DNA of 64,000 nucleotides, taken from Bacillota bacterium (GTDB lineage: Bacteria; Bacillota; Proteinivoracia; UBA4975). Each line of letters starts with the position of its first letter. Position 1 is the first letter of the stretch. Positions 26,334-46,174 of this stretch are shown piece by piece. The notes under the pieces are model-generated. The model did no database searches. It was not told the DNA's origin and saw only the letters and a list, made by a program, of their open reading frames with translations. The DNA is taken from contig JBMNFF010000001.1 of the NCBI GenBank assembly GCA_050949165.1, positions 1,059,185 to 1,123,184 on the forward strand, in the 5' to 3' direction. The position numbers and the translations under genes were made by a program.

Positions 26334-28322
26334 ATGCAATTTGGCAAAGCCCGCCTCAGCTTCCGCGACGCAGGGAGGGCAGAGACAGTGACCTTCTCTG
26401 ACCTGAGCTGCAGCCACCCCCGGCTGCAGGTCTCCCCTCACCTGCAAAAACTCCGCCACGGCGCCGTCCTCACCTTGACCCTGACCGCTTCCGAGCCGGT
26501 GGAACTGGAAGAATTCATCCTGGAGGCCCAGCTTCCCAAGGGGAATATGCTCAGCAACGGTTACCAATCCTGGTCCCGAACCAAGCTCTACCGCCCCGAC
26601 CAATATATGGCTCCCCTCTTCGCCCTGGCCCGGCCCCTGCTCAGTCCTTACGGGGATTACTCCCTGATTCGGCGCAGCGGCCGCCGCGGCCATTTCTTTT
26701 CCTGGTCCTGGACAGGCTTTGAGCAGGAGGGCAACTGGTTCTTGCTGGGTTCCGACGCCGAAGACTGGGGATACACCCTCTTTGAGGTCGATGGACGCCA
26801 GGAAAAACTCTATATCCGCCGGGACTGCCAGGGCGAAATAACCTCGTCCTACCCCCTCCTCCAGCTCTACTACGGCTGGGGCGGTGAAGGTGAGGTGTGG
26901 GATGAATATGCCTCCCTGCTGACCCGCCGACGTCCCAACGCCCGGCGCTGCACCGGCTGGACCAGCTGGTACAACTACTATACAAAGATCGACGAGGAGA
27001 TCATCCTGGACAACCTCCGGGCCCTTTCGACCTCGGGGCACCCCTTCCAGATCTTCCAAATCGACGACGGCTGGCAGGAGGCCATCGGCGACTGGCTGGA
27101 TATCAACGCAAAATTCCCCTCGGGCCTGGCCAGCCTCGCCCGGACAATTCGCCAACGGGGTTTCCGCCCCGGCCTGTGGCTTTCCCCCTTCATTTGCGAT
27201 AAAAAATCCCGCCTGTGGCGGGAGAATTACGACTGGGTCCTCAAGGACGAGAAGGGTCGTCCTGTCAAGGCCGGCTGGAACCCCGGCTGGAATGGCTGGT
27301 TCTACGCCCTGGACTTCTATGCCCCGGGCTTTCAGACCTGGCTCAAGGAGGTCTTTGCCACCATCCTGGACCAATGGGGGTTCCAGATGGTCAAGCTGGA
27401 CTTCCTCTATGCCGTGGCCCTGCGCCCCCACCACGGCCGCTGCCGGGGGCGGATCATGGCCGAGGCCATGGAGTTCCTGCACCAAATCTGTGGAGACAAT
27501 TTCATCCTGGGCTGCGGCGTACCCCTGGCCCAATCAGCGGGCCGGGTGGACTTCTGTCGCATCGGCGCCGACGTGGCCCCCTACTGGGAAGACCGATTCC
27601 TGCGGACGATAGGCTACCGGGAGCGGGTCTCCACCCGCAACTCCCTGGCCAGCACCCTGCACCGGCATATGCTGGACAGGCGGTTCTTCCGCAACGATCC
27701 CGATGTCTTCCTCCTCCGGGACGGCGTCCCCAAGGTCAATGAGAACAAGCTCAGCCTCGCCGAGCGCCATACTTTATTCTTCCTCAACAACCTCCTGGGC
27801 GGCCTGGTCTTCCTCTCGGACCATGTGGGGGAGTACACCCCGGAGCAGCAGGCCCAGCTGGCCGAGATGTTCCCCAGCCTGGAAGCAGAAATAACCCGCT
27901 TCCATTACCAGGGGGAACTGTTTGTAATTGAGTTCCAGGTGGAGGAGCGGGAATACGTCGCCCTGGTAAACTTAAGCCCCAAACCCGCTTACCTCGACCT
28001 ACCCCCGGGCCAGTGGTTCCACCCGGAGCTTAAAGTCTGCACCGGCCACCTGGATTTGCAGCCCCACCAGACCCTCTGCCTGGCCAAGGTCAAGCCCCAG
28101 GCCCAGCCCTATGTGCTGGGGAGCAGCGGCCACCTGTACCCCGGCGCCCAGGTAGAATCCTTTACCCGGGAAGGGGATGGCTGGACCCTGACCCTGAAAT
28201 CCTACTCTTCCCCCCACACCCGGGTCTGGATAGCCCTGCCTGAAGGGATGGAAGAACTGGTGGTCAACGGCACCCGCCCAGAAATCATCCACTGGGGACG
28301 GTTCCCAGTGGCGCAAATCTAA
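26334..28322 (+). CDS. glycoside hydrolase, GH36-like (clan GH-D, alpha-galactosidase fold)
   Basis: QIDDGWQ, GLWLSPF and MVKLDF motifs typical of GH36/GH27 catalytic domain; family assignment by eye. Confidence 0.6.
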   Translation: MQFGKARLSFRDAGRAETVTFSDLSCSHPRLQVSPHLQKLRHGAVLTLTLTASEPVELEEFILEAQLPKGNMLSNGYQSWSRTKLYRPDQYMAPLFALARPLLSPYGDYSLIRRSGRRGHFFSWSWTGFEQEGNWFLLGSDAEDWGYTLFEVDGRQEKLYIRRDCQGEITSSYPLLQLYYGWGGEGEVWDEYASLLTRRRPNARRCTGWTSWYNYYTKIDEEIILDNLRALSTSGHPFQIFQIDDGWQEAIGDWLDINAKFPSGLASLARTIRQRGFRPGLWLSPFICDKKSRLWRENYDWVLKDEKGRPVKAGWNPGWNGWFYALDFYAPGFQTWLKEVFATILDQWGFQMVKLDFLYAVALRPHHGRCRGRIMAEAMEFLHQICGDNFILGCGVPLAQSAGRVDFCRIGADVAPYWEDRFLRTIGYRERVSTRNSLASTLHRHMLDRRFFRNDPDVFLLRDGVPKVNENKLSLAERHTLFFLNNLLGGLVFLSDHVGEYTPEQQAQLAEMFPSLEAEITRFHYQGELFVIEFQVEEREYVALVNLSPKPAYLDLPPGQWFHPELKVCTGHLDLQPHQTLCLAKVKPQAQPYVLGSSGHLYPGAQVESFTREGDGWTLTLKSYSSPHTRVWIALPEGMEELVVNGTRPEIIHWGRFPVAQI

Positions 28323-28464
28323 ACCTGCGACAACAGGGATGTTTCAGATCGTCTCAAAATCCATCTCCGCACGCTCCCGGAACCAGGGAGGTAATCGGCT
28401 CTCGAGACGGCGCCCATAACACAACGGAAACAAATTTGAGACAGGTGCACGCGTCCCCGCTGTA

Positions 28465-29118
28465 TCATTGCGAAGGGAAAAAGTGCTGCATTGCCCTATT
28501 TTTATTTTCTTGTGACAGCTTAGTTATTTCATTGGATCGGTGGATATTATTTAATCTATACCTAACCCAAGCCGGAAATATCTCTTTCATGTCCTGGGCA
28601 TACAAAGAGCCGTCCCTGGGAAACTGTTTCCCGATTACCGTAAATCCGCCGTTGGTTAAATCCACTGTAACCAAACAGGGCATGGATGAACCGCTTTCCT
28701 TCACGACTCTTCCCTGTTGGGGAAAATAAATTTCCTCCAGCACCCAGAGGTAAACCTCCACCTTTTCATCTGAAATAAAAGAGTATCCATAGATTCTAAA
28801 GGATGCAAAGCTTTCTGCATTATCCGATTTGGCATGCCCCGCTGTCAAATATTCCTGAATAACTTTGATATTATCCTCAGCAAAGGACATGTTTCTTTGC
28901 TTGCCAAATAAAGTAATCATTTCACTAACGTTTCTACCCTTTTTCGCAACCTTATAGCCTAGGCCGATGTAAATAATTGCTTCATCAGTATCGGAAGTCC
29001 GAATGCTGAATATCGGATTTTTATTAGCCAGAAATCTGTAATAGTCCACTCCGAATAGTATGGTCCACGCAACCAAAATAACCAGACCAAAGAACAACAG
29101 TTTGCGTTTTAGTAACAA
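28465..29118 (-). CDS. hypothetical membrane-anchored protein encoded in an AT-rich insert
   Basis: 217-aa ORF, TTG start with AAGGGG RBS; N-terminal TM helix; local GC clearly below flanks. Confidence 0.5.
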   Translation of the reverse strand: MLLKRKLLFFGLVILVAWTILFGVDYYRFLANKNPIFSIRTSDTDEAIIYIGLGYKVAKKGRNVSEMITLFGKQRNMSFAEDNIKVIQEYLTAGHAKSDNAESFASFRIYGYSFISDEKVEVYLWVLEEIYFPQQGRVVKESGSSMPCLVTVDLTNGGFTVIGKQFPRDGSLYAQDMKEIFPAWVRYRLNNIHRSNEITKLSQENKNRAMQHFFPSQ

Positions 29119-29144
29119 TTATATTTCCCCTTAATCATTAGATA

Positions 29145-29168
29145 TGGCCAAGAAATATTTCTTGGCCA
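29145..29168. promoter_or_regulatory. 24-bp perfect palindrome TGGCCAAGAAATATTTCTTGGCCA upstream of the AT-rich-island gene
   Basis: about 27 nt upstream of the TTG start at 29118; candidate operator or terminator. Confidence 0.4.
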
Positions 29169-29400
29169 CTAGCCTCTATCTTCTAACCCTAGCGTACTTA
29201 GGGATATTGTTCTCCCAGCCGTTTACGGAACTACTTGTCCAAGCATGATAGTTGCTAGTGTGTTGAGCTACCTTATAGTCATAATAAGTTTTCCAGAATA
29301 TTGTACTCCTTATTATTTTATAATTTAACTATATTGCTACTTGATTAACATTTCAAGTATTTATATACAATAAATTTTTGTTTTAAAAGGAGGCATTGAA

Positions 29401-30735
29401 ATGTCCACCCTGGTAAAACCCCGCATGACCACCCGCGATAAGATCACCCTGGCCATCCTGGTCCTGATGTCTGTCTTCCTCTATGCCGACATGAACGCCA
29501 TCACTCCCGTGGTCACCGACATCATGGCCGAGTACGGCATCAGCGAAAGCGACATCGGCCTGGTGGGCTCGGCCTTCACCCTGATTGGCGCCATCGTCAG
29601 CATCGTCTTCGGCTTCCTGGCCGACCGCACTTCCCGCAAATGGCTGCTGGCCTTTGTGGTCCTGGTGGGGGAAATCCCCTGCTTCCTCACCGGCATCAAG
29701 TTCTTCACCCAAACCTATGAGCAGCTTCTCTTCCTGCGGATTTTGACCGGTCTGGGAGTGGGCGGCATCTTCCCCATCACCTTCTCCCTCATCGGCGACT
29801 ACTTCCACGCCCATCACCGCCCCATGGCGACGGCCTTTGTGGGAGCGGCCTGGGGCATCGGCGAAATTGCCGGCAGCATTATCGCTGGCTTCCTGGCCGG
29901 CCCCTACGGCTGGCGCCTGCCCTTCATCGTCGCCGCCGCCCCCAACTTCCTCCTGGTGCCCCTCTTCCTCCTCATCGCCAAGGAACCGGCCCGCGGCGCC
30001 CAGGAAGAGCAAGTCCAGGAACTCATGGCCCAGGGCATCGAGTACAACGAAAAGATCCGCCTCAAAGACCTCAAGTACGTCCTCACCAACAAGACCAATA
30101 TCCTGGGCTACCTCCAGGGAGTCCCCGGCTCTCTGCCCTGGGGCATCCTACCCTTCTACCTCATCGCCTATTACGAGGTTGTCCAGGGCTTCAGCAAGGA
30201 AATGGGCACCACCATCTTCTTCCTCTTCGGCGTTGGCGCCACCATCGGCGGCATCCTGGGGGGTTGGCTGGGCCAGGTTGTTTACAAAAAGGACCCCCGC
30301 TACATGCCCCTGCTGGCCGGCGGCACCGTCCTGGCCGGCATCATCCCTACCATGTTCCTCCTCAACATCTCCTGGCCCACCGACCCCGGACTGGTGGACT
30401 GGCTGCTGCCGGTGGCCTTTGCTATCTTTTCCGGAGCCCTGATCACCATTGCCGGGCCCAATATCAAGTCCATCCTCCTCAATGTCAACCCGCCGGAGCA
30501 CCGGGGTACCGTCTTTGCCCTCCACAATATCTTCGACTCTATCGGCAAGGGCGTGGGCCCCTTCATCGGCGGTCTCCTCATCACCAAAATTGGCTACACC
30601 TTCACCGTGTATTTTTCCGCCCTGATGTGGATCCCCTGCGGCCTCATCTTCCTGGCCATCTACTGGACCATCAGGAAGGACATCGACTATGTCAATCGCT
30701 ACCTGGACGAAAAAGCGGCCAAGCTGGCCGGGTGA
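29401..30735 (+). CDS. MFS transporter
   Basis: 444 aa, 12 predicted TM helices, MFS signature RxxRK-like loop between TM2 and TM3; AAAGGAGG RBS. Confidence 0.85.
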   Translation: MSTLVKPRMTTRDKITLAILVLMSVFLYADMNAITPVVTDIMAEYGISESDIGLVGSAFTLIGAIVSIVFGFLADRTSRKWLLAFVVLVGEIPCFLTGIKFFTQTYEQLLFLRILTGLGVGGIFPITFSLIGDYFHAHHRPMATAFVGAAWGIGEIAGSIIAGFLAGPYGWRLPFIVAAAPNFLLVPLFLLIAKEPARGAQEEQVQELMAQGIEYNEKIRLKDLKYVLTNKTNILGYLQGVPGSLPWGILPFYLIAYYEVVQGFSKEMGTTIFFLFGVGATIGGILGGWLGQVVYKKDPRYMPLLAGGTVLAGIIPTMFLLNISWPTDPGLVDWLLPVAFAIFSGALITIAGPNIKSILLNVNPPEHRGTVFALHNIFDSIGKGVGPFIGGLLITKIGYTFTVYFSALMWIPCGLIFLAIYWTIRKDIDYVNRYLDEKAAKLAG

Positions 30736-38675: not shown

Positions 38676-39452
38676 ATGAGGCTGTATTTGAAGTTTGTCG
38701 CCATGCACATACAGAGTCAGATGCAGTACAAGGCTTCTTTCTTCCTCACGGCCCTGGGCCAGTTCCTGGTCTCCTTTACCGCCCTCCTGGGAATTTGGTT
38801 TATGTTTATCCGGTTCAACGAAGTGGAAGGCTTTAGCTTTCCCGAAGTGCTGCTATGCTCTGCCACCACCCTGATGGCCTTTTCCCTGGCGGAATGCTTT
38901 GGCCGCGGCTTTGACCGCTTCCCCCGGATTATCAGCAATGGCGAGCTGGACAGGATGCTGGTGCGTCCCTGGCCGGTGGTGCCCCAAGTGCTGGCGGCAG
39001 AAATTGACTTTTCCCGCCTGGGCCGCCTAATCCAGGCCGTCCTGGTCTTCAGCTACGCAATCCCCGCCAGCCAGATTCACTGGACCATTGCCAAGATCAT
39101 CACTCTCATCCTGATGATTCTCTGCGGCAGCATCGTCTTTTTCTGCCTCTTCCTGATCTACGCCGCCTTTTCTTTCTTCACCATTGAAGGCCTGGAATTC
39201 ATGAATGTCCTCACCGATGGCGGCCGCGAGTTCGGACGCTATCCCTATTCGGTGTACGGCAATGATGTGCTGCGCTTCCTGACCTACGTCGTCCCCCTGG
39301 CCCTGTTTCAGTACTACCCCCTCCTCTACCTTCTGGACAGAAAAGACAGTATCCTCTACATGCTGGCGCCCCTGCTGGCCCTTCCCTTTGCCATCCCTGC
39401 CTACGCCTTCTGGCGCTACGGGCTCAGCAGGTATAAATCCACGGGTTCATAA
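38676..39452 (+). CDS. ABC-2 family transporter permease (second subunit)
   Basis: 258 aa, multiple TM helices, immediately downstream of first permease. Confidence 0.65.
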   Translation: MRLYLKFVAMHIQSQMQYKASFFLTALGQFLVSFTALLGIWFMFIRFNEVEGFSFPEVLLCSATTLMAFSLAECFGRGFDRFPRIISNGELDRMLVRPWPVVPQVLAAEIDFSRLGRLIQAVLVFSYAIPASQIHWTIAKIITLILMILCGSIVFFCLFLIYAAFSFFTIEGLEFMNVLTDGGREFGRYPYSVYGNDVLRFLTYVVPLALFQYYPLLYLLDRKDSILYMLAPLLALPFAIPAYAFWRYGLSRYKSTGS

Positions 39453-39625
39453 AAGCGGTTGCCCCGTGCATCGTAAGATATGGTGGTGATGTCTTCCTCT
39501 TCTTGAACCTGTATCTGACGATCCAACTCATCATAGGTGTAGCTTACCACCGTCCCGTCGGGGTAGCATGAATACAAAGAAAACCCGGTTACCGTTTTAC
39601 TTAGTAGCCGGGTATAAGTTTTGTC
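39419..39625 (-). pseudogene. RHS/YD-repeat protein fragment (no start codon)
   Basis: minus-strand frame translates to ...YPDGTVVSYTYDELDRQIQ...TTISYDARGNRF... (two YD-repeat units) bounded by stops; lies in AT-rich patch. Confidence 0.5.
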
Positions 39626-39904
39626 TTAAAAGATATTTTTGCATCAGCCAGAGAATGCGCAACCTGCGGTTCTAAACTAGCTCTACTGCCTTAAATGAAT
39701 AGCCGGTAAACCTATTCTTTTCGAAAACATCTTTAAACTGCTCGGACACAAAAAACCTTTGCTTATAATCTTTCAAACGAATAATATCAAACCCTAGAAG
39801 TTTTTCCTTCTGCAATACATATTTGATATTTTACAGATGTTAAGCTGGTAGGACCTGCTGATGGCCAAACAGATTGAGGGAGCTTGTGTAAGCTCCCTCG
39901 TTTC

Positions 39905-41023
39905 TTATTCCGCTAATATCTCTACATTGGCCCGGGGCACGGTGACCCGCTGGCCGGTATCCAGGGTGACCTCCAGGACCCGGACCTTGGCCTCGCTCTC
40001 GATTTTCTGCAACTGCACCGGGAGGGCGCTGACCGCCCCCAGGCGGCCAAACCAGGGGGTGCGGATTACCCGGACCCGGGTCCCTATTTCCAGCCCGGTG
40101 GCGGCGGCCTCTGCCTGGACCGCTGCTCCGCCGGGCCGCGCCACCACCACTTCGGGACGCAGTACCCCGGCCCGAATCTGGGTGGTCCCGTTGATGGAGG
40201 CCGTCTCGCCTGCCAGCTTCTGGAAAAGAGCGAAGGTCTTCTCGGCCATGGGTATTTTGCCGAAGCCCTCGGTGACCACCAGGGAAAGGGGAATGTCCTC
40301 GTGGCCGGTGATGGCCACCCCGATTTCATAGCCCAGGTATTCATGGAGGTCCCGGTCCAGGACGCCGCCGCTGACCAGACCCACCACGCCAACTTCGCCG
40401 GCCCGCTGCAGGGCGTCGGCGGTGACCAGGGCTCCGCCTACCAAGATGCGGCCCCGATCCCCGTCCAGGATCTGCCGGGCAGTGAGGGTATCGGTGGGCT
40501 TTTTCACCGCAATGCGCAGCGTGCCGCAGCCTTCACCGCCGATGCCGAAGATGCCCTGAATCAGGGCGGCGGGGGTCTCCACCACCACCCCTTCCCTGGG
40601 CAGGACCTCGGTGACGGTGCCGGAGATATACGCCTTCACTGCCACCGGCGCCGCCGGTTCCCGAATGGTGACCTGGCCGGTTACGGAGGATATGTGCTCA
40701 ATGGTTCCCGTGGCCGGGGACTGGCACTGCCCCCGAAAAAGGCCGAAGAAAGCAGAATAACGGGCGATTACCTCCCCTTCCCGGACGCTGTCTCCTACGG
40801 ACTTGACCATGACCTCATCAATTTCCGAGGGCTCTATATTCAGCTGGTTGGAGACCGCCACCAAGTGGGGGCGGCCGGGAATAAAGGCCTGGGCCACAAT
40901 TGTTTCCGGCTCTACCCTCATGCCCCGCTCGACCAATACCTCCCCCTTCAGGGGCAGGCGCCTGGCCTTGCGGATAATGGTTCCCTCACTGACTGTCAAG
41001 CCTGGCAAATACGCGTCGCTCAT
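39905..41023 (-). CDS. hypothetical protein, last gene of 7-gene operon
   Basis: 372-aa ORF, start overlaps stop of upstream GlmL-like gene; Gly-rich segments, no recognised family. Confidence 0.5.
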   Translation of the reverse strand: MSDAYLPGLTVSEGTIIRKARRLPLKGEVLVERGMRVEPETIVAQAFIPGRPHLVAVSNQLNIEPSEIDEVMVKSVGDSVREGEVIARYSAFFGLFRGQCQSPATGTIEHISSVTGQVTIREPAAPVAVKAYISGTVTEVLPREGVVVETPAALIQGIFGIGGEGCGTLRIAVKKPTDTLTARQILDGDRGRILVGGALVTADALQRAGEVGVVGLVSGGVLDRDLHEYLGYEIGVAITGHEDIPLSLVVTEGFGKIPMAEKTFALFQKLAGETASINGTTQIRAGVLRPEVVVARPGGAAVQAEAAATGLEIGTRVRVIRTPWFGRLGAVSALPVQLQKIESEAKVRVLEVTLDTGQRVTVPRANVEILAE

Positions 41024-42822
41024 AATTTTCCCCCCACCAGCATCGGGTACATTCCCACCTGCTCATACCATTTGAGCAGCTGGCGCACCCGGGTTTTCTC
41101 GTCTTCCGCCAGGAGCAGGGGCCGCCCCCGGCAGTCCAGGAAGAGTCCGCACGCGCCCCCAGCCAATTTCCGGCGCAAGGTGCGGCCCCGGCCGGCGCCA
41201 ATATTGGCTCCCCCCTGGGGATGAAGCTCCACCTGGAAGGGGCCCTCCCCGGAAATTAGCTGGATTTCTCCCCAAGCCACGTCCACAGCGGCACTGCCTT
41301 TGTCCCACTTGACGGCGCCGCGAATTGCCCGCTCGCCAATTCGGCCCCTGCCTGCGGGCGCCACTACGGTGCCCAGGTAAATGAGGCAGTCCTTCTCGAA
41401 GACCTGGGTGGCTCCCTGGGGATGAATCTCCGAAAGCACACCCAACTGGGGCATCATGAAGATGCTATCCACCGCCAGCCGGGTCACCCCCTGGGGCTGG
41501 AAGGCGTCCACCATCATCATGGCGCTCTGGACCCGGCGCGGGGCGTGGGAAAGGGCGCCGCCGCTGCCCACCAAGAGATCCAGCTCCAGCATGTCGATGA
41601 AGGTTTCCTCGCCGCTGGTCTGTTGGAAGGCATCGCCGATGGAGCGCTGGCGCTGTACTCCCCGGAGCCCCACCGCCAGGGTCTTGTGATGGGCAAAGGC
41701 CAGCCCCAAGGCCTCCCGGGCGATGGCCTGCTCGATTAAGAGGTCCTCCAGGGTGTGGGGAATGGTGGTGGGGCGGATCATCTTGTTGCGGATGCGGTTC
41801 TTCAGCTCCGCCGGGGCGATGCTGAAGGGCAGCCAGCGCAGAATATTGTCTATCCCCGTTTCCACCAGCACATTGCACACGCTGTAACTCATGCCCAAAT
41901 TGGCGCTGACGGTGCGGTTAAAGATCCCCGCAAACATGGAGAACACGTCGGTGGTAGCGCCGCCGATATCCACGCCGATGACATTGATTCCGTTTTCCCT
42001 GGCCACCGTCTGGATAATCTTGCCCACCGCCGCCGGCGTAGGCATGATGGGGGCATGGGTCCAGTCCAGCAGCTTTTTATAGCCCGGGGCCTGGGCCATG
42101 ACATGCTCCATGAAGAGATTGTGGATTTCCTCCCGGGCAGGACCCAGCTCCTCCTTCTCCAGCACCGGCCGGATATTGGGGAGAAAGCGCAGGTCTGTCT
42201 TATCCCGCAGGAGTTCTCCCACCTGGGGTTGGGCATGGGTGTTGCCGCAGTAGATTACCGGCAAATTGTAGCCGCTGCCCAGACGAGGCCGGGGATCCGA
42301 GGCGGCGAGGATTTCCGCTATCTCCACCACATGGGAGACGGTGCCCCCGTCGATGCCCCCCGCCACCAGAACCATGTCGGGGCGGAGCTGGCGGATGCGC
42401 TCGATCTTCTGGTAAGCCAGGCGTCCATCGTCCACGGCAATGGTGTCCATGACGATGGCCCCGGCCCCCAGGGCCGCCCGCTGGGCGCTCTCGGCGGTCA
42501 TCTTCTTGACCACCCCGGCCACCATCATCTGGAGGCCGCCCCCGGCGCTGCTGGTGGCCAGGAACAAGTCCACGCCCCGCTCATCCCGGGCGGGAGTGAT
42601 GATGCCTCGGGAATCCATAAATACGCGTCCCGTCAATTCCTCCACTTCCCGGATGGCATTCCTGACCCCCATGGTCACATCTTCAAAGGGCTTTTCCACC
42701 GTGGTGGGAGCTTCGCCTCGCACCTGCAGACGGTACTCCCCCTGGACCAGTTCAATGAGTATTGCCTTGGTGGTGGTGCTTCCACAGTCCACAGCCAGGA
42801 TTACCTGAACAGGTTTATTCAA
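41020..42822 (-). CDS. GlmL/MutL-family protein (ASKHA-fold ATPase-like), long form
   Basis: motifs shared with glutamate mutase accessory protein GlmL as recalled: DCGSTTTK, SSAGGGLQM, QRAALGAGA, GGIDGG, EPAREEI, IMPTPAAV, VDIGGATTD; about 130-aa C-terminal extension. Confidence 0.7.
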   Translation of the reverse strand: MNKPVQVILAVDCGSTTTKAILIELVQGEYRLQVRGEAPTTVEKPFEDVTMGVRNAIREVEELTGRVFMDSRGIITPARDERGVDLFLATSSAGGGLQMMVAGVVKKMTAESAQRAALGAGAIVMDTIAVDDGRLAYQKIERIRQLRPDMVLVAGGIDGGTVSHVVEIAEILAASDPRPRLGSGYNLPVIYCGNTHAQPQVGELLRDKTDLRFLPNIRPVLEKEELGPAREEIHNLFMEHVMAQAPGYKKLLDWTHAPIMPTPAAVGKIIQTVARENGINVIGVDIGGATTDVFSMFAGIFNRTVSANLGMSYSVCNVLVETGIDNILRWLPFSIAPAELKNRIRNKMIRPTTIPHTLEDLLIEQAIAREALGLAFAHHKTLAVGLRGVQRQRSIGDAFQQTSGEETFIDMLELDLLVGSGGALSHAPRRVQSAMMMVDAFQPQGVTRLAVDSIFMMPQLGVLSEIHPQGATQVFEKDCLIYLGTVVAPAGRGRIGERAIRGAVKWDKGSAAVDVAWGEIQLISGEGPFQVELHPQGGANIGAGRGRTLRRKLAGGACGLFLDCRGRPLLLAEDEKTRVRQLLKWYEQVGMYPMLVGGKL

Positions 42823-42872
42823 ATCTTACCACCTCCCAGAGTTAAGGGCCCGCCGGAGCGGGCCCGTTCAGC

Positions 42873-43502
42873 TTATAGAATCGACAGCCACTCACCCAGC
42901 AGGAAGTAGATCCTGCCTACCAGCAAGGACATTCGGGCCATGACGGTGTTGCCGAAAGACGCTCCGAAGGCGATCATCATCACCCACTTGCCGATGCTGG
43001 CACCGACCTTCAAGGGGCCCTTCTGCTCCCGGGAGAAGTAGAAATAGATTAGAGTCCCCAACACACCCAGGATAAAGAGCAGGGAGTCGATGCCGAACTT
43101 GGACATCACGCCCCAGAGGGGCAGGGCCATGGTGGAGGTAATCTGGCTCATAAAGGAAGCCCCGATTACGCCCCGGATGGCCAGGGCACTGCCGACCCCG
43201 ACGACAAAGCCCAGGGGAATACGACTGATCCACTTCCCCGTCTTTAAGAAGCGGGTGTAGAGGAGCACGCCCAGGACCAGGGGCACGATCATAATCCACT
43301 GGCGGGGCTCACCCTCGGCCGGATTGACGAGCGGATTCCACGCGTTGGTGACTATGGACTGGTAACCATAAAAGATGCCGATCCCCGCCGCTAACCCGAT
43401 AAACAGGTGTTCAGCAGTGCGGTAAAAGGGGTTTTCTCGGAGCAGGTAGCTGAGAATAGCCAAAGTGCAGAGGGCGCCTATCCAAATTCCCAAGGTTTCC
43501 AT
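42873..43502 (-). CDS. polytopic membrane protein, unknown function
   Basis: 209 aa, 5-6 hydrophobic helices. Confidence 0.5.
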   Translation of the reverse strand: METLGIWIGALCTLAILSYLLRENPFYRTAEHLFIGLAAGIGIFYGYQSIVTNAWNPLVNPAEGEPRQWIMIVPLVLGVLLYTRFLKTGKWISRIPLGFVVGVGSALAIRGVIGASFMSQITSTMALPLWGVMSKFGIDSLLFILGVLGTLIYFYFSREQKGPLKVGASIGKWVMMIAFGASFGNTVMARMSLLVGRIYFLLGEWLSIL

Positions 43503-43536
43503 AATTTCACCTCCTTGCAGCTCTTTTCAATCCGGA

Positions 43537-44373
43537 CTAATCCTTCTTCTTCCTGCCCACGGCGACATAGGCGATGTTGCCGATGAGGATCAGGGCAATT
43601 ATCACCAGGTGGGAAATGGACTGGGCATCCATTCCGCCCAGACCCAGCCCCGGCCGGTCCACCAAGACCTCGTACTGAGCGGCGCCGCTCATACCCGCCA
43701 GCAGGCCCACCAGGTCTCCCGACTGGAGATAGGGGAGCATGCCGGGAACGGAAACGGCAGTGACGCCACCGGTGATGGTGACGGGATACTGAGAACCGAT
43801 CTGCTCGATATAGGTCCGAAGACCGGGATCACCGGCAGAAAGGCAGATAATCAAGTCTATGTCCTCGATGGTCTTGATATCCTTCATCATGGGGATGCTG
43901 CCCGTCCGGGTCCGGGTGACGTCCTCGGGGAAGGTGGCGTGGATATCCCGGGCCAGGGAATTGAGGACCACGGCCTGCCCCGGGCGATAGCCCAGGTTGA
44001 CATAGTCTTCGCCGTACACCGCCTCCAGTTCGGGAGCGACGGCATTGTGGACCCTGTCGGCAAAGGTGGCGCCCTGGTTCCATAGGGCCACGGCCACTAA
44101 CTTGTGCTTCTTTTCCAGGATGTGCCTGGTCACGGCTTCGGCCTGAGGCAGGAGCTCCGGAGCGCTGGCGGCATCCCAGTCATAGGACAGCAACACCACC
44201 GAACCGGCGGGCAGCCTATCCACCAGGTCATACACCGCCTGGGTGTTTGCGGTGATGTCAACTGGGAGTCCCAATGGGAAGAGCAGGGGCAGGACGATGG
44301 ACAGGAACAGGAGCAGGTAGATAATCCGCCGGTCGATGGTCTGCAGTTTTTCCAACCACTTCACTGATTTCAC
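43537..44373 (-). CDS. bitopic membrane protein with extracytoplasmic domain, unknown function
   Basis: N-terminal and C-terminal TM helices flanking about 200-aa soluble domain. Confidence 0.5.
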   Translation of the reverse strand: MKSVKWLEKLQTIDRRIIYLLLFLSIVLPLLFPLGLPVDITANTQAVYDLVDRLPAGSVVLLSYDWDAASAPELLPQAEAVTRHILEKKHKLVAVALWNQGATFADRVHNAVAPELEAVYGEDYVNLGYRPGQAVVLNSLARDIHATFPEDVTRTRTGSIPMMKDIKTIEDIDLIICLSAGDPGLRTYIEQIGSQYPVTITGGVTAVSVPGMLPYLQSGDLVGLLAGMSGAAQYEVLVDRPGLGLGGMDAQSISHLVIIALILIGNIAYVAVGRKKKD

Positions 44374-44402
44374 CTCCCTGTATGCATATTAATCCGGGGC
44401 GG

Positions 44403-45032
44403 CTACTGCCCGCCAAAATACGATCTGTCGATGCCAAAGATTACCCGCAGGGCCGTCACTATAGCGCCCAGGGAGGCGCCGATCATGATTCCCCGCATGC
44501 CGGCGGTGGTAAACACCGTCTGCAGCCAGCCCGAGTATTCGGGAAAGCCGCTCCATATTTTCGCTCCCACCGGAGTCGCTCCCAACATCACCACCACGGC
44601 GGAAATCAGGAGCACTGTGGCCTCCTTGGTCCTGATCCGGAAGGCCCTGTACGCAGCCGAAGCGATATAGAAGGCCAACAGGGCAAACATCGTCCCGTTG
44701 AGATGCTCAAAGATATTGCTGAACAGGTACTGGTAAACGGCGTTCTGCTGGGTCCAGATAATGGGGATTACGGCCATGACCACCATAGCCACCAGCAGGA
44801 TCAGGCTGTTCCACCATTCCTTCTTGCGCTTGACAATCCTCTGCACGTGAATCCGCAGGAGATTGGCTGCCCCCAGCAAGAGGGCAAAGGCGGCGATGAC
44901 TATTGCCCATTCCAGGAAGTGACCAACCACATATTCGGAGAGGAAGGGAATCTTGACAAAGTAGTCCAACAAGAACAGGATGCCCGCCACAAAGGTAATG
45001 GCAATTGGAACTTCGCGACGCACTTCTTTCAC
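44403..45032 (-). CDS. polytopic membrane protein, unknown function
   Basis: 209 aa, same length and similar hydropathy pattern as 42873-43502 product. Confidence 0.5.
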   Translation of the reverse strand: MKEVRREVPIAITFVAGILFLLDYFVKIPFLSEYVVGHFLEWAIVIAAFALLLGAANLLRIHVQRIVKRKKEWWNSLILLVAMVVMAVIPIIWTQQNAVYQYLFSNIFEHLNGTMFALLAFYIASAAYRAFRIRTKEATVLLISAVVVMLGATPVGAKIWSGFPEYSGWLQTVFTTAGMRGIMIGASLGAIVTALRVIFGIDRSYFGGQ

Positions 45033-45089
45033 CTCCTCTTCTTCCAGATGTCTGCGGGAACCGCTTTCCCGCAGGGACTTTTCAGCTCA

Positions 45090-45887
45090 TCATGACGAGA
45101 ACTTGACCAGGAAGTCGCAGATTACCGGCCAGTTGAAGGTGGTGGTGATGGTGCCCACCACGATCAGGATGATGGCAGCGATCTTGCCCAGGTCCTGGAC
45201 CTTGATTCCTGCAACCTGCATGGGATCCTGGGAAAGATAGGCGCCGGCGGCAAAGAGCTCTTCTCCAATCAGGCAGTAATCGCAGGCGGCAATGAAGAAG
45301 GGAAGCTGATGGGTATTGGCAGTGCCCGCCACCTGGATGGAGCCCGACACAAAGCCGCCCTCGGCAAAGATCAGGGATTCCGCCCAGAATGCTCCCATCA
45401 TGATGTTGGCGGCCACCTTTTCCCGGGCCATGATCCCCATACATCCGGCGGCATAGGCGAATTGCTCGTCGGACAGGAAGCGGATATTATCGGGGTTATA
45501 GGACTCCGGCTTGCCCTCGGTGAGGTAGCTCTGGCGCACCACCTCCTCGCTGATAGGCAGGACCTCGGGCATCCTGTTGGTGACGATAAGATCGGTGTCG
45601 TACTTGGCCGTCAGCCGGGACACATAGCCCAGGACCGCCAGCCCTGCCAGGGTTTGGGCTGCCGTCTCTTCGCTGAGGGCGGCGATGCCGGGGCTGAAGT
45701 GCACCGGGCGCCCCATCTCGGTGGCCCGGCCTACAGCTTCATCAATGGCCTCCAGACCGCTGATGCGGCGGATAAAGAACTTCTTGCCCTTTTTGGCCTG
45801 CTTGATGGTGATGAGCAGCACCACGGCAATCAGCAGGGCAAACACCAAGAGCGCCAAGCGATTGACCACAAAGATCTCTTCTAACAC
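45090..45887 (-). CDS. membrane protein, unknown function
   Basis: 265 aa with N- and C-terminal hydrophobic helices. Confidence 0.5.
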   Translation of the reverse strand: MLEEIFVVNRLALLVFALLIAVVLLITIKQAKKGKKFFIRRISGLEAIDEAVGRATEMGRPVHFSPGIAALSEETAAQTLAGLAVLGYVSRLTAKYDTDLIVTNRMPEVLPISEEVVRQSYLTEGKPESYNPDNIRFLSDEQFAYAAGCMGIMAREKVAANIMMGAFWAESLIFAEGGFVSGSIQVAGTANTHQLPFFIAACDYCLIGEELFAAGAYLSQDPMQVAGIKVQDLGKIAAIILIVVGTITTTFNWPVICDFLVKFSS

Positions 45888-46174
45888 TGGGTTTTCACCT
45901 CCTTGCCTTTGTTTCTATCCAACTCCTCGAGCCGGGAGATCAGCCTCTCCACCTGCTCCCGGTCGCCGATGAGGTTGGCGAAGTCCTCGGTATTGGCCTC
46001 GCCGAAGATCCAGTCCAGCCCTGGCGCCGCAATCTGGATCAGGGCGCCGCCAACACCAGCCAGGGGCTTGTGCATTTCCAGAAACATTATTGCGGGAATG
46101 GTCAGACCATGGCGGTTGATGCGTTGGGCGATTCTTTCCGTCAGCTGATTCAGGCGTTCTTCCATACAATTCAC
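45881..46174 (-). CDS. small protein with one hydrophobic segment, first gene of operon
   Basis: 97-aa ORF overlapping next gene by 7 nt; start codon uncertain. Confidence 0.4.
   Translation of the reverse strand: MNCMEERLNQLTERIAQRINRHGLTIPAIMFLEMHKPLAGVGGALIQIAAPGLDWIFGEANTEDFANLIGDREQVERLISRLEELDRNKGKEVKTQC

Follow-up and report, generated by a model that had tools for sequence, protein, structure and literature searches.

Fragments of an rhs Gene and an Imm11 Immunity Gene Form an AT-Rich Insert Between Two Convergent Operons of an Uncultured Bacillota Lineage

In an uncultured lineage of Bacillota that has been seen in metagenome assemblies alone, the gap between two convergent operons holds truncated pieces of two gene families of polymorphic-toxin loci: a shard of an Rhs (YD-repeat) gene and the 3′ end of an Imm11 immunity gene. 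Both are foreign in composition, and the insert that they form is fixed in its species and absent from two sister species. We are nearly certain that this spacer is a nonfunctional scar derived from Rhs/Imm11 DNA, whether decay or direct capture produced it. Decay of a larger, acquired polymorphic-toxin locus is the origin that we favor, and we regard it as likely. The scar is an ordinary product of genome decay in well-known families and is new as an instance only.

Results

An AT-Rich Insert in a Terminator-Containing Gap

The window, by which we mean the whole 64-kb stretch of DNA that was analyzed, contains two intact, convergent genes separated by 452 nt (39453–39904). The left flank is an ABC-2 family permease gene (38676–39452, plus strand; PF06182, E 2.4e-45), which ends an ABC transporter operon and has its stop codon at 39450–39452. 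Its C terminus, ..RYKSTGS, is common to the three relatives L001, L002, and L003; this conservation indicates that the permease gene is intact. The right flank (39905–41023, minus strand) encodes a 372-aa protein, identified from the list of open reading frames and by its homologues in the same three relatives; it has no Pfam domain above threshold, and its gene shares operon and orientation with a MutL-like (PF13941) gene. This gene opens a minus-strand string of unknown function at 39905–45900 that is conserved in all three relatives, in the order 372-aa protein, MutL-like PF13941 protein, small proteins of 209, 275, and 209 aa, and a DUF6754 protein. The neighbors of the patch are an ABC transporter, an ATP-grasp gene, the MutL-like gene, and the DUF6754 gene, and none of the neighboring genes carries an N-terminal trafficking domain or a link to a secretion system (PAAR/VgrG, LXG/WXG, DUF6531, and the like).

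The patch is AT-rich relative to its surroundings, as had been proposed from the sequence alone. Its G+C content is 40.8%, and that of the Imm11 part 31.9%, whereas the window as a whole has 59.1% and the flanking genes have 55.7% and 64.5%. Among the 300-nt troughs of G+C in the 64-kb window, it ranks second lowest. The deepest trough (28306–29610, G+C 0.31) is possibly another foreign insertion; it holds a 217-aa ORF (28465–29118, minus strand) that matches no Pfam family and has a hydrophobic segment at its N terminus. A further intergenic stretch of ∼540 nt (1941–2478, G+C 0.38), flanked by a solute-binding protein gene and an aminotransferase-like gene, contains short ORFs only.

The AT-rich insert itself measures ∼420 nt (39453–39874) and runs from the permease stop codon to an intrinsic, bidirectional terminator hairpin at 39875–39900, found by terminator scan and folding. 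The hairpin has a G+C-rich stem of 10–11 bp, a GUGU loop, and a T-tract on the plus strand; it folds at −19.7 kcal/mol (z −3.8) and is the single structured element in the patch region. A distance of 4 nt separates it from the stop codon of the 372-aa gene, and L001 has a hairpin at the equivalent position. Both convergent operons probably use this element as their native terminator. Two of the six sites that vary among ten conspecific contigs, 39877 and 39898, are partners of one base pair of this hairpin. The changes, A>G in L085 and T>C in L087, are not compensatory, because they occur in different contigs.

A Shard of an rhs Gene with Two Clear YD Units

The minus-strand frame 39622–39455 translates to KTYTRLLSKTVTGFSLYSCYPDGTVVSYTYDELDRQIQVQEEEDITTISYDARGNR and matches the Pfam family RHS_repeat (PF05593) at 26.8–29.0 bits (E 1.4e-6 to 6.8e-6), above the gathering cut-off of 22 bits. 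It also passes TIGR01643, narrowly, at 16.3 bits against a cut-off of 15.8. Within it lie two clear YD units, YPDGTVVSYTYDELDRQIQV and EEDITTISYDARGNR. The sequence-only reading had named these two minus-strand units, and the RHS_repeat scores, together with alignments that span both of them, bear it out. Taken alone, the second unit (22 aa) has no Pfam match and is too short to score; it is supported only via alignments to the best database match, P0004. Upstream of the two clear units there is probably a third, damaged by indels (TYT..RLLSKT), to judge from several alignments that extend upstream and pair it with TYTYDxxGRLLSKT. An in-frame TAA at 39628–39626 bounds the frame upstream.

Database searches place the fragment among large Rhs proteins. 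An exhaustive HMMER search against 1.84 billion representative proteins matched 3782 of them at E ≤ 1e-3 and 361 at E ≤ 1e-10. Among the matches listed, nearly all are 600–7500 aa long and each aligns in 6–21 separate stretches, as a repeat unit does when it matches a repeat array. The five top matches that were checked are all RHS_repeat proteins, with 8–18 RHS_repeat stretches each, and two of them also carry DUF6531. When the fragment was compared with P0004 by BLASTP, residues 21–56, which comprise both YD units, aligned to a dozen repeats at 43–51% identity, and the YDELDR/YDALDR variant of the YDxxGR motif is common to both proteins. The expected similarity to Rhs proteins is therefore significant, in Pfam as in the 3782 HMMER matches. 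A word-indexed protein search with the same fragment returned only the fragment's own annotated ORF.

What remains of the gene is small and cut at both ends. The fragment holds two or three units in 56 codons; a long Rhs array, with tens of repeats in an unbroken ORF that opens with a start codon, is absent. Neither an Rhs core end (PxxxxDPxGL) nor a C-terminal toxin domain was found with Pfam and NCBIfam in any frame of the patch. The Rhs-like coding ends at an arginine codon (39457–39455), 3 nt from the permease stop, and the frame runs from there directly into antisense permease sequence.

The 3′ End of an Imm11 Immunity Gene

Upstream on the minus strand, 39672–39831 is the 3′ end of an Imm11 (DUF1629) gene, comprising its last ∼52 codons and a TAG stop at 39674–39672. 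The frame 39830–39675 translates to NIKYVLQKEKLLGFDIIRLKDYKQRFFVSEQFKDVFEKNRFTGYSFKAVELV and matches positions 146–192 of the 194 in Pfam Imm11 (PF07791) at 26.5 bits (E 4.8e-6; cut-off 22.1 bits). Thus, the short upstream frame that had been read as a fragment of a small protein is indeed one, and it corresponds to the C-terminal quarter of Imm11. A complete domain (∼194 positions, in a protein of ∼200–225 aa) is absent. DNA homology to Imm11 genes starts at ∼39831 and ends at the stop codon, and in-frame stops stand just upstream at 39833 and 39842; together these observations indicate that ∼145 codons were lost from the 5′ end. No cognate toxin gene (AHH/HNH/SHH) adjoins the fragment or occurs anywhere in the 64-kb window.

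Two short stretches accompany the fragments. The 46-nt spacer between the Imm11 stop and the start of YD-like sequence (39626–39671, minus strand) has no similarity to the DNA downstream of Imm11 genes at 17 related loci. The 43 nt between the Imm11 breakpoint and the terminator hairpin (39832–39874), for which a homology search found no match, are unassigned and may be native or foreign.

A metagenome scan whose query was an alignment of the Imm11 fragment with its first relatives yielded 15 loci. Complete Imm11 genes (∼200–225 aa) are present in 10 of them (L093, L095, L097–L101, L103, L104, and L106), and the gene in L096 runs off the contig start. The fragment is 64–76% identical in amino acids and 70–80% identical in DNA to the genes of L093–L106, which are mostly full-length; the contigs that carry related genes are metagenomic and have 29–49% G+C. 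A word-indexed protein search with the fragment matched only two short metagenomic ORFs. From the word-indexed searches with both fragments, we conclude that public proteomes hold no near-identical donor; a close paralogue of the fragments was likewise not found in the protein database. The window covers 64 kb of a 1.14-Mb contig, and an intact donor locus may lie elsewhere in this genome. In L098, the Imm11 gene directly follows a 3′-terminal stretch of Rhs coding sequence that ends in an AHH nuclease (PF14412), and an rhs-type gene with DUF6531 comes after it. At that locus (L098:2–5310) the Imm11 gene encodes 208 aa and overlaps the end of the Rhs-AHH gene.

Degraded copies are frequent among the closest relatives. 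L094 has an Imm11 3′ fragment downstream of an IS110 transposase; L091 and L102 have one where L096 has the full gene, and the L102 locus is that of L096 in shortened form. The second gene of L092 carries an internal deletion that joins its N-terminal 40 aa directly to the C-terminal tail, and the copy in L105 contains in-frame stops. The truncated copies (L094:2285–2476, L091:3–231, L102:7959–8147, L092:375–635, and 39831–39672 of the window) keep the C-terminal ∼50–65 residues, and their breakpoints lie at most ∼25 aa upstream of a DIIRL motif. This clustering could mark a hot spot of recombination or deletion, or it could be ascertainment only, the search having required C-terminal motifs.

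Just after the Imm11 stop in L091, L096, and L102 lies a 92-aa ORF with an ATG start (L091:263–541). It contains three YD-like units (YDQNGR, YDNLGR, and YDENGN), occurs in one lineage only, falls short of the RHS_repeat cut-off at 18.9 bits, and matches MORN_2 weakly. The ORF may represent a small protein of the YD/MORN type or one more shard of rhs. A conserved pair of Imm11 and such a mini-YD ORF was considered as the source of the layout in the window and rejected: the pair is confined to this single lineage and shows no specific similarity to the spacer or the YD piece of the window.

The Annotated ORF Is a Spurious Gene Call

The public metagenome-assembled genome annotates a 53-aa "hypothetical protein" (P0001, ACOX2G_05670) with a TTG start at 39416–39577 on the minus strand. 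Its first 41 residues belong to the Rhs remnant, and its last 12 (FYEPVDLYLLSP) read the conserved permease 3′ end in antisense. A near-identical peptide (YEPVDLYLLRP) is encoded antisense to the permease in L002, which is without the YD fragment. The ORF has no promoter-like site and no Shine–Dalgarno sequence. Gene counts should leave out ACOX2G_05670, a spurious call in which a pseudogene fragment is joined to antisense permease. These details qualify two earlier proposals. That the YD frame has no start codon is right as regards ATG and a Shine–Dalgarno sequence, but an in-frame TTG is present and is the one that the public annotation uses. That the frame overlaps the permease 3′ end is true of the ORF, but its overlapping tail is antisense permease, not Rhs.

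The Insert Is Fixed in Its Species and Missing from Sister Species

The closest species-level relatives that keep the gene pair are L001 (85% permease identity) and L003 (83%). In these the two genes stand only ∼70 and ∼55 nt apart, as against 452 nt here, and the L001 gap is filled by a terminator hairpin. In L002 (UBA5509), the junction instead holds a 2.6-kb gene for an 852-aa LRR + CotH kinase + Fn3-associated protein (L002:8877–11435, minus strand). The short gaps in two relatives and the different gene in a third mark the convergent-terminator gap as a variable site in the clade. The comparison with relatives that the sequence-only reading had suggested thus bears fruit in part: the patch is an insertion relative to L001 and L003, but none of the relatives examined has an intact rhs gene here. 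Across 80 related genomes, no ORF with at least three YD motifs lies downstream of the permease, and an intact rhs/Imm11 island occupies the junction in none of the relatives or strains examined. We read the event as a gain in this lineage rather than a loss in the relatives.

Ten independent conspecific assemblies (JGI, NCBI, and Logan) have an identical permease and patch and the same 452-nt gap. Their contigs vary at 6 of 4501 columns, none of them in the two remnant frames. Identity across ten independent assemblies rules out an assembly chimera. More generally, the reading of the fragments as chance ORFs or an assembly artefact in AT-rich intergenic DNA draws on their shortness and on the failure of the second YD unit to match Pfam by itself, and we give it a negligible probability. 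Two independent families are matched above curated cut-offs on one strand, ∼45 nt apart; the YD fragment has its 361 matches at E ≤ 1e-10; a loose YD-motif regular expression run over all six frames of the 64-kb window matches once, in the patch; and the Imm11 part retains its 70–80% DNA identity to Imm11 genes. Pfam, HMMER, DNA homology, and the ten identical assemblies together refute this reading.

Signals of Expression and Mobility

Signals of activity were sought throughout the patch region. A promoter scan found no sigma-70-like promoter in 39000–40300, and direct reading of the sequence found neither an ATG nor a Shine–Dalgarno sequence ahead of either remnant frame. An Rfam scan of 39300–40000 at E ≤ 1 returned no family at threshold; a match to the SurA sRNA (17.9 bits against a gathering score of 100) was treated as chance. 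As for mobility, neither terminal inverted repeats nor target-site duplications turned up in a repeat search, and a 9-nt inverted repeat (I3) with arms 420 nt apart is about what chance would give in 700 nt. By blastn, the patch had no match in 72,556 plasmids and 50,697 phages. The fragments thus appear not to be expressed, although their open frames leave a little room for translation.

One could suppose that the scar retains a function, either as a mini-immunity peptide of 47–52 aa, the C-terminal subdomain of Imm11, which would neutralize an AHH/HNH-type toxin from neighbors, or as the 53-aa YD peptide. Both frames are open, the patch is fixed in all sampled conspecifics, and C-terminal Imm11 pieces recur in unrelated contigs (L094, L091/L102, and the second gene of L092), with breakpoints clustered within ∼25 residues upstream of DIIRL. 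Such a function nevertheless seems to us very improbable. Besides the missing start and promoter signals, full-length homologues share no start codon at the breakpoint, only one quarter of the Imm11 domain is left, and antisense permease makes up a quarter of the 53-aa ORF. The clustering amounts to four cases and partly reflects a search that required C-terminal motifs, and fixation is uninformative because the conspecific contigs are near-clonal. It is a similarly long shot that the C-terminal ∼50 residues of this Imm11 subfamily form a self-sufficient mini-immunity peptide or, alternatively, a preferred recombination breakpoint or handle. If true, either would explain both the similar pieces in the window, L094, L091/L102, and the second gene of L092 and the fixation of the patch in the species.

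Discussion

Origin and Fate of the Scar

We propose that two convergent housekeeping operons, separated by a short gap with a terminator, received a low-G+C region with an Rhs toxin and Imm11 in that gap, and that deletions then cut this region down to the present ∼420 nt. The foreign DNA would now sit between the permease stop codon and the native hairpin terminator. In favor of decay, the RHS_repeat and Imm11 matches are both above their cut-offs, on the same strand, and ∼45 nt apart. Set against it is the state of the remnant frames, which are open over 52 and 58 codons without internal stops. Their openness makes truncation by deletion a better fit than long neutral decay. The term first applied to the patch, a decayed toxin/immunity cassette, holds up well, given the matches to both families and the insertion relative to the relatives; no toxin domain survives. 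Since no intact rhs/Imm11 island was found at the junction, we infer the step in which a larger locus was once present here and decayed, as opposed to the direct capture of a fragment.

Such a capture is the principal alternative. A ∼400-nt foreign Rhs/Imm11 piece could have been pasted in by one step, for example as filler during recombination or repair, and a complete toxin locus would then never have been resident at this gap. Both fragments are cleanly cut with their frames open, as truncation in a capture event would leave them, no strain or sister species examined has a larger island at the site, and mobile-element ends are lacking. However, the 2.6-kb accessory gene at the L002 junction indicates that whole genes integrate here, and the stepwise deletion of a toxin/immunity array is visible among the relatives when L102 is set beside L096. 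Capture and decay leave an identical end product, and we hold capture to be possible though rather unlikely.

On either origin, nothing would be expected to be made from the scar, because it has no toxin domain, no DPxGL core end, no secretion domain, no start signal, and no promoter. The transcript of the ABC transporter operon probably reads the ∼420 nt of antisense scar as a 3′ untranslated region before it reaches the hairpin at 39875–39900. This passive read-through is likely the sole present-day consequence of the insert.

The biological weight of the finding is small: it adds a further case of horizontally acquired toxin/immunity loci whittled down to scars. It does show that this lineage has been exposed to antagonism of the Rhs-AHH type. 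It also adds a third state to the gap between the ABC transporter and MutL-like operons, which is empty in two sister species, holds the CotH/LRR gene in a third, and carries the scar here.

Comparison with Known Rhs and Imm11 Systems

A functional Rhs shell needs dozens of repeats together with plug, core, and toxin domains. The piece in the window shares its repeat sequence, including the YDxLDR variant, with Rhs/YD toxins (WapA-type proteins, DUF6531-RHS proteins, and P0004), but where a functional shell has its dozens of repeats, the window has a 56-codon shard. The Imm11 fragment compares in a similar way with Imm11 proteins: it shares their C-terminal 47 profile positions, above cut-off, but is without the N-terminal three-quarters, including the conserved start MKWYQPIECDNTVKNPLVCD.

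Imm11 (PF07791, formerly DUF1629) comprises immunity proteins of Tox-AHH/HNH/SHH polymorphic toxins, and its association with Tox-AHH and RHS was tabulated by Zhang et al. 2012 (PMC3482391). The gene order in L098 agrees with this published association. Start-less rhs fragments downstream of immunity genes were described as a feature of rhs loci by Poole et al. 2011 (PMC3150448), along with a "C-terminal displacement" model of rhs evolution and orphan rhs-CT/rhsI modules. In functional orphans, which adjoin a full-length rhs gene, the DPxGL boundary is retained together with a C-terminal toxin and the cognate immunity gene. The scar, in contrast, has two or three repeats, no toxin, and no downstream immunity gene, and it is stranded between housekeeping operons in a 64-kb window without a main rhs gene. 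Its layout is nonetheless that of the orphan modules. On the minus strand, the Imm11 stop at 39672 is followed after ∼45 nt by YD-like sequence from about 39622–39625, so that a start-less piece of rhs core comes right after an immunity gene on one strand. Like the orphan modules, the scar is foreign, has a G+C content below that of its host, and arose as a by-product of the recombination and deletions that affect polymorphic-toxin loci.
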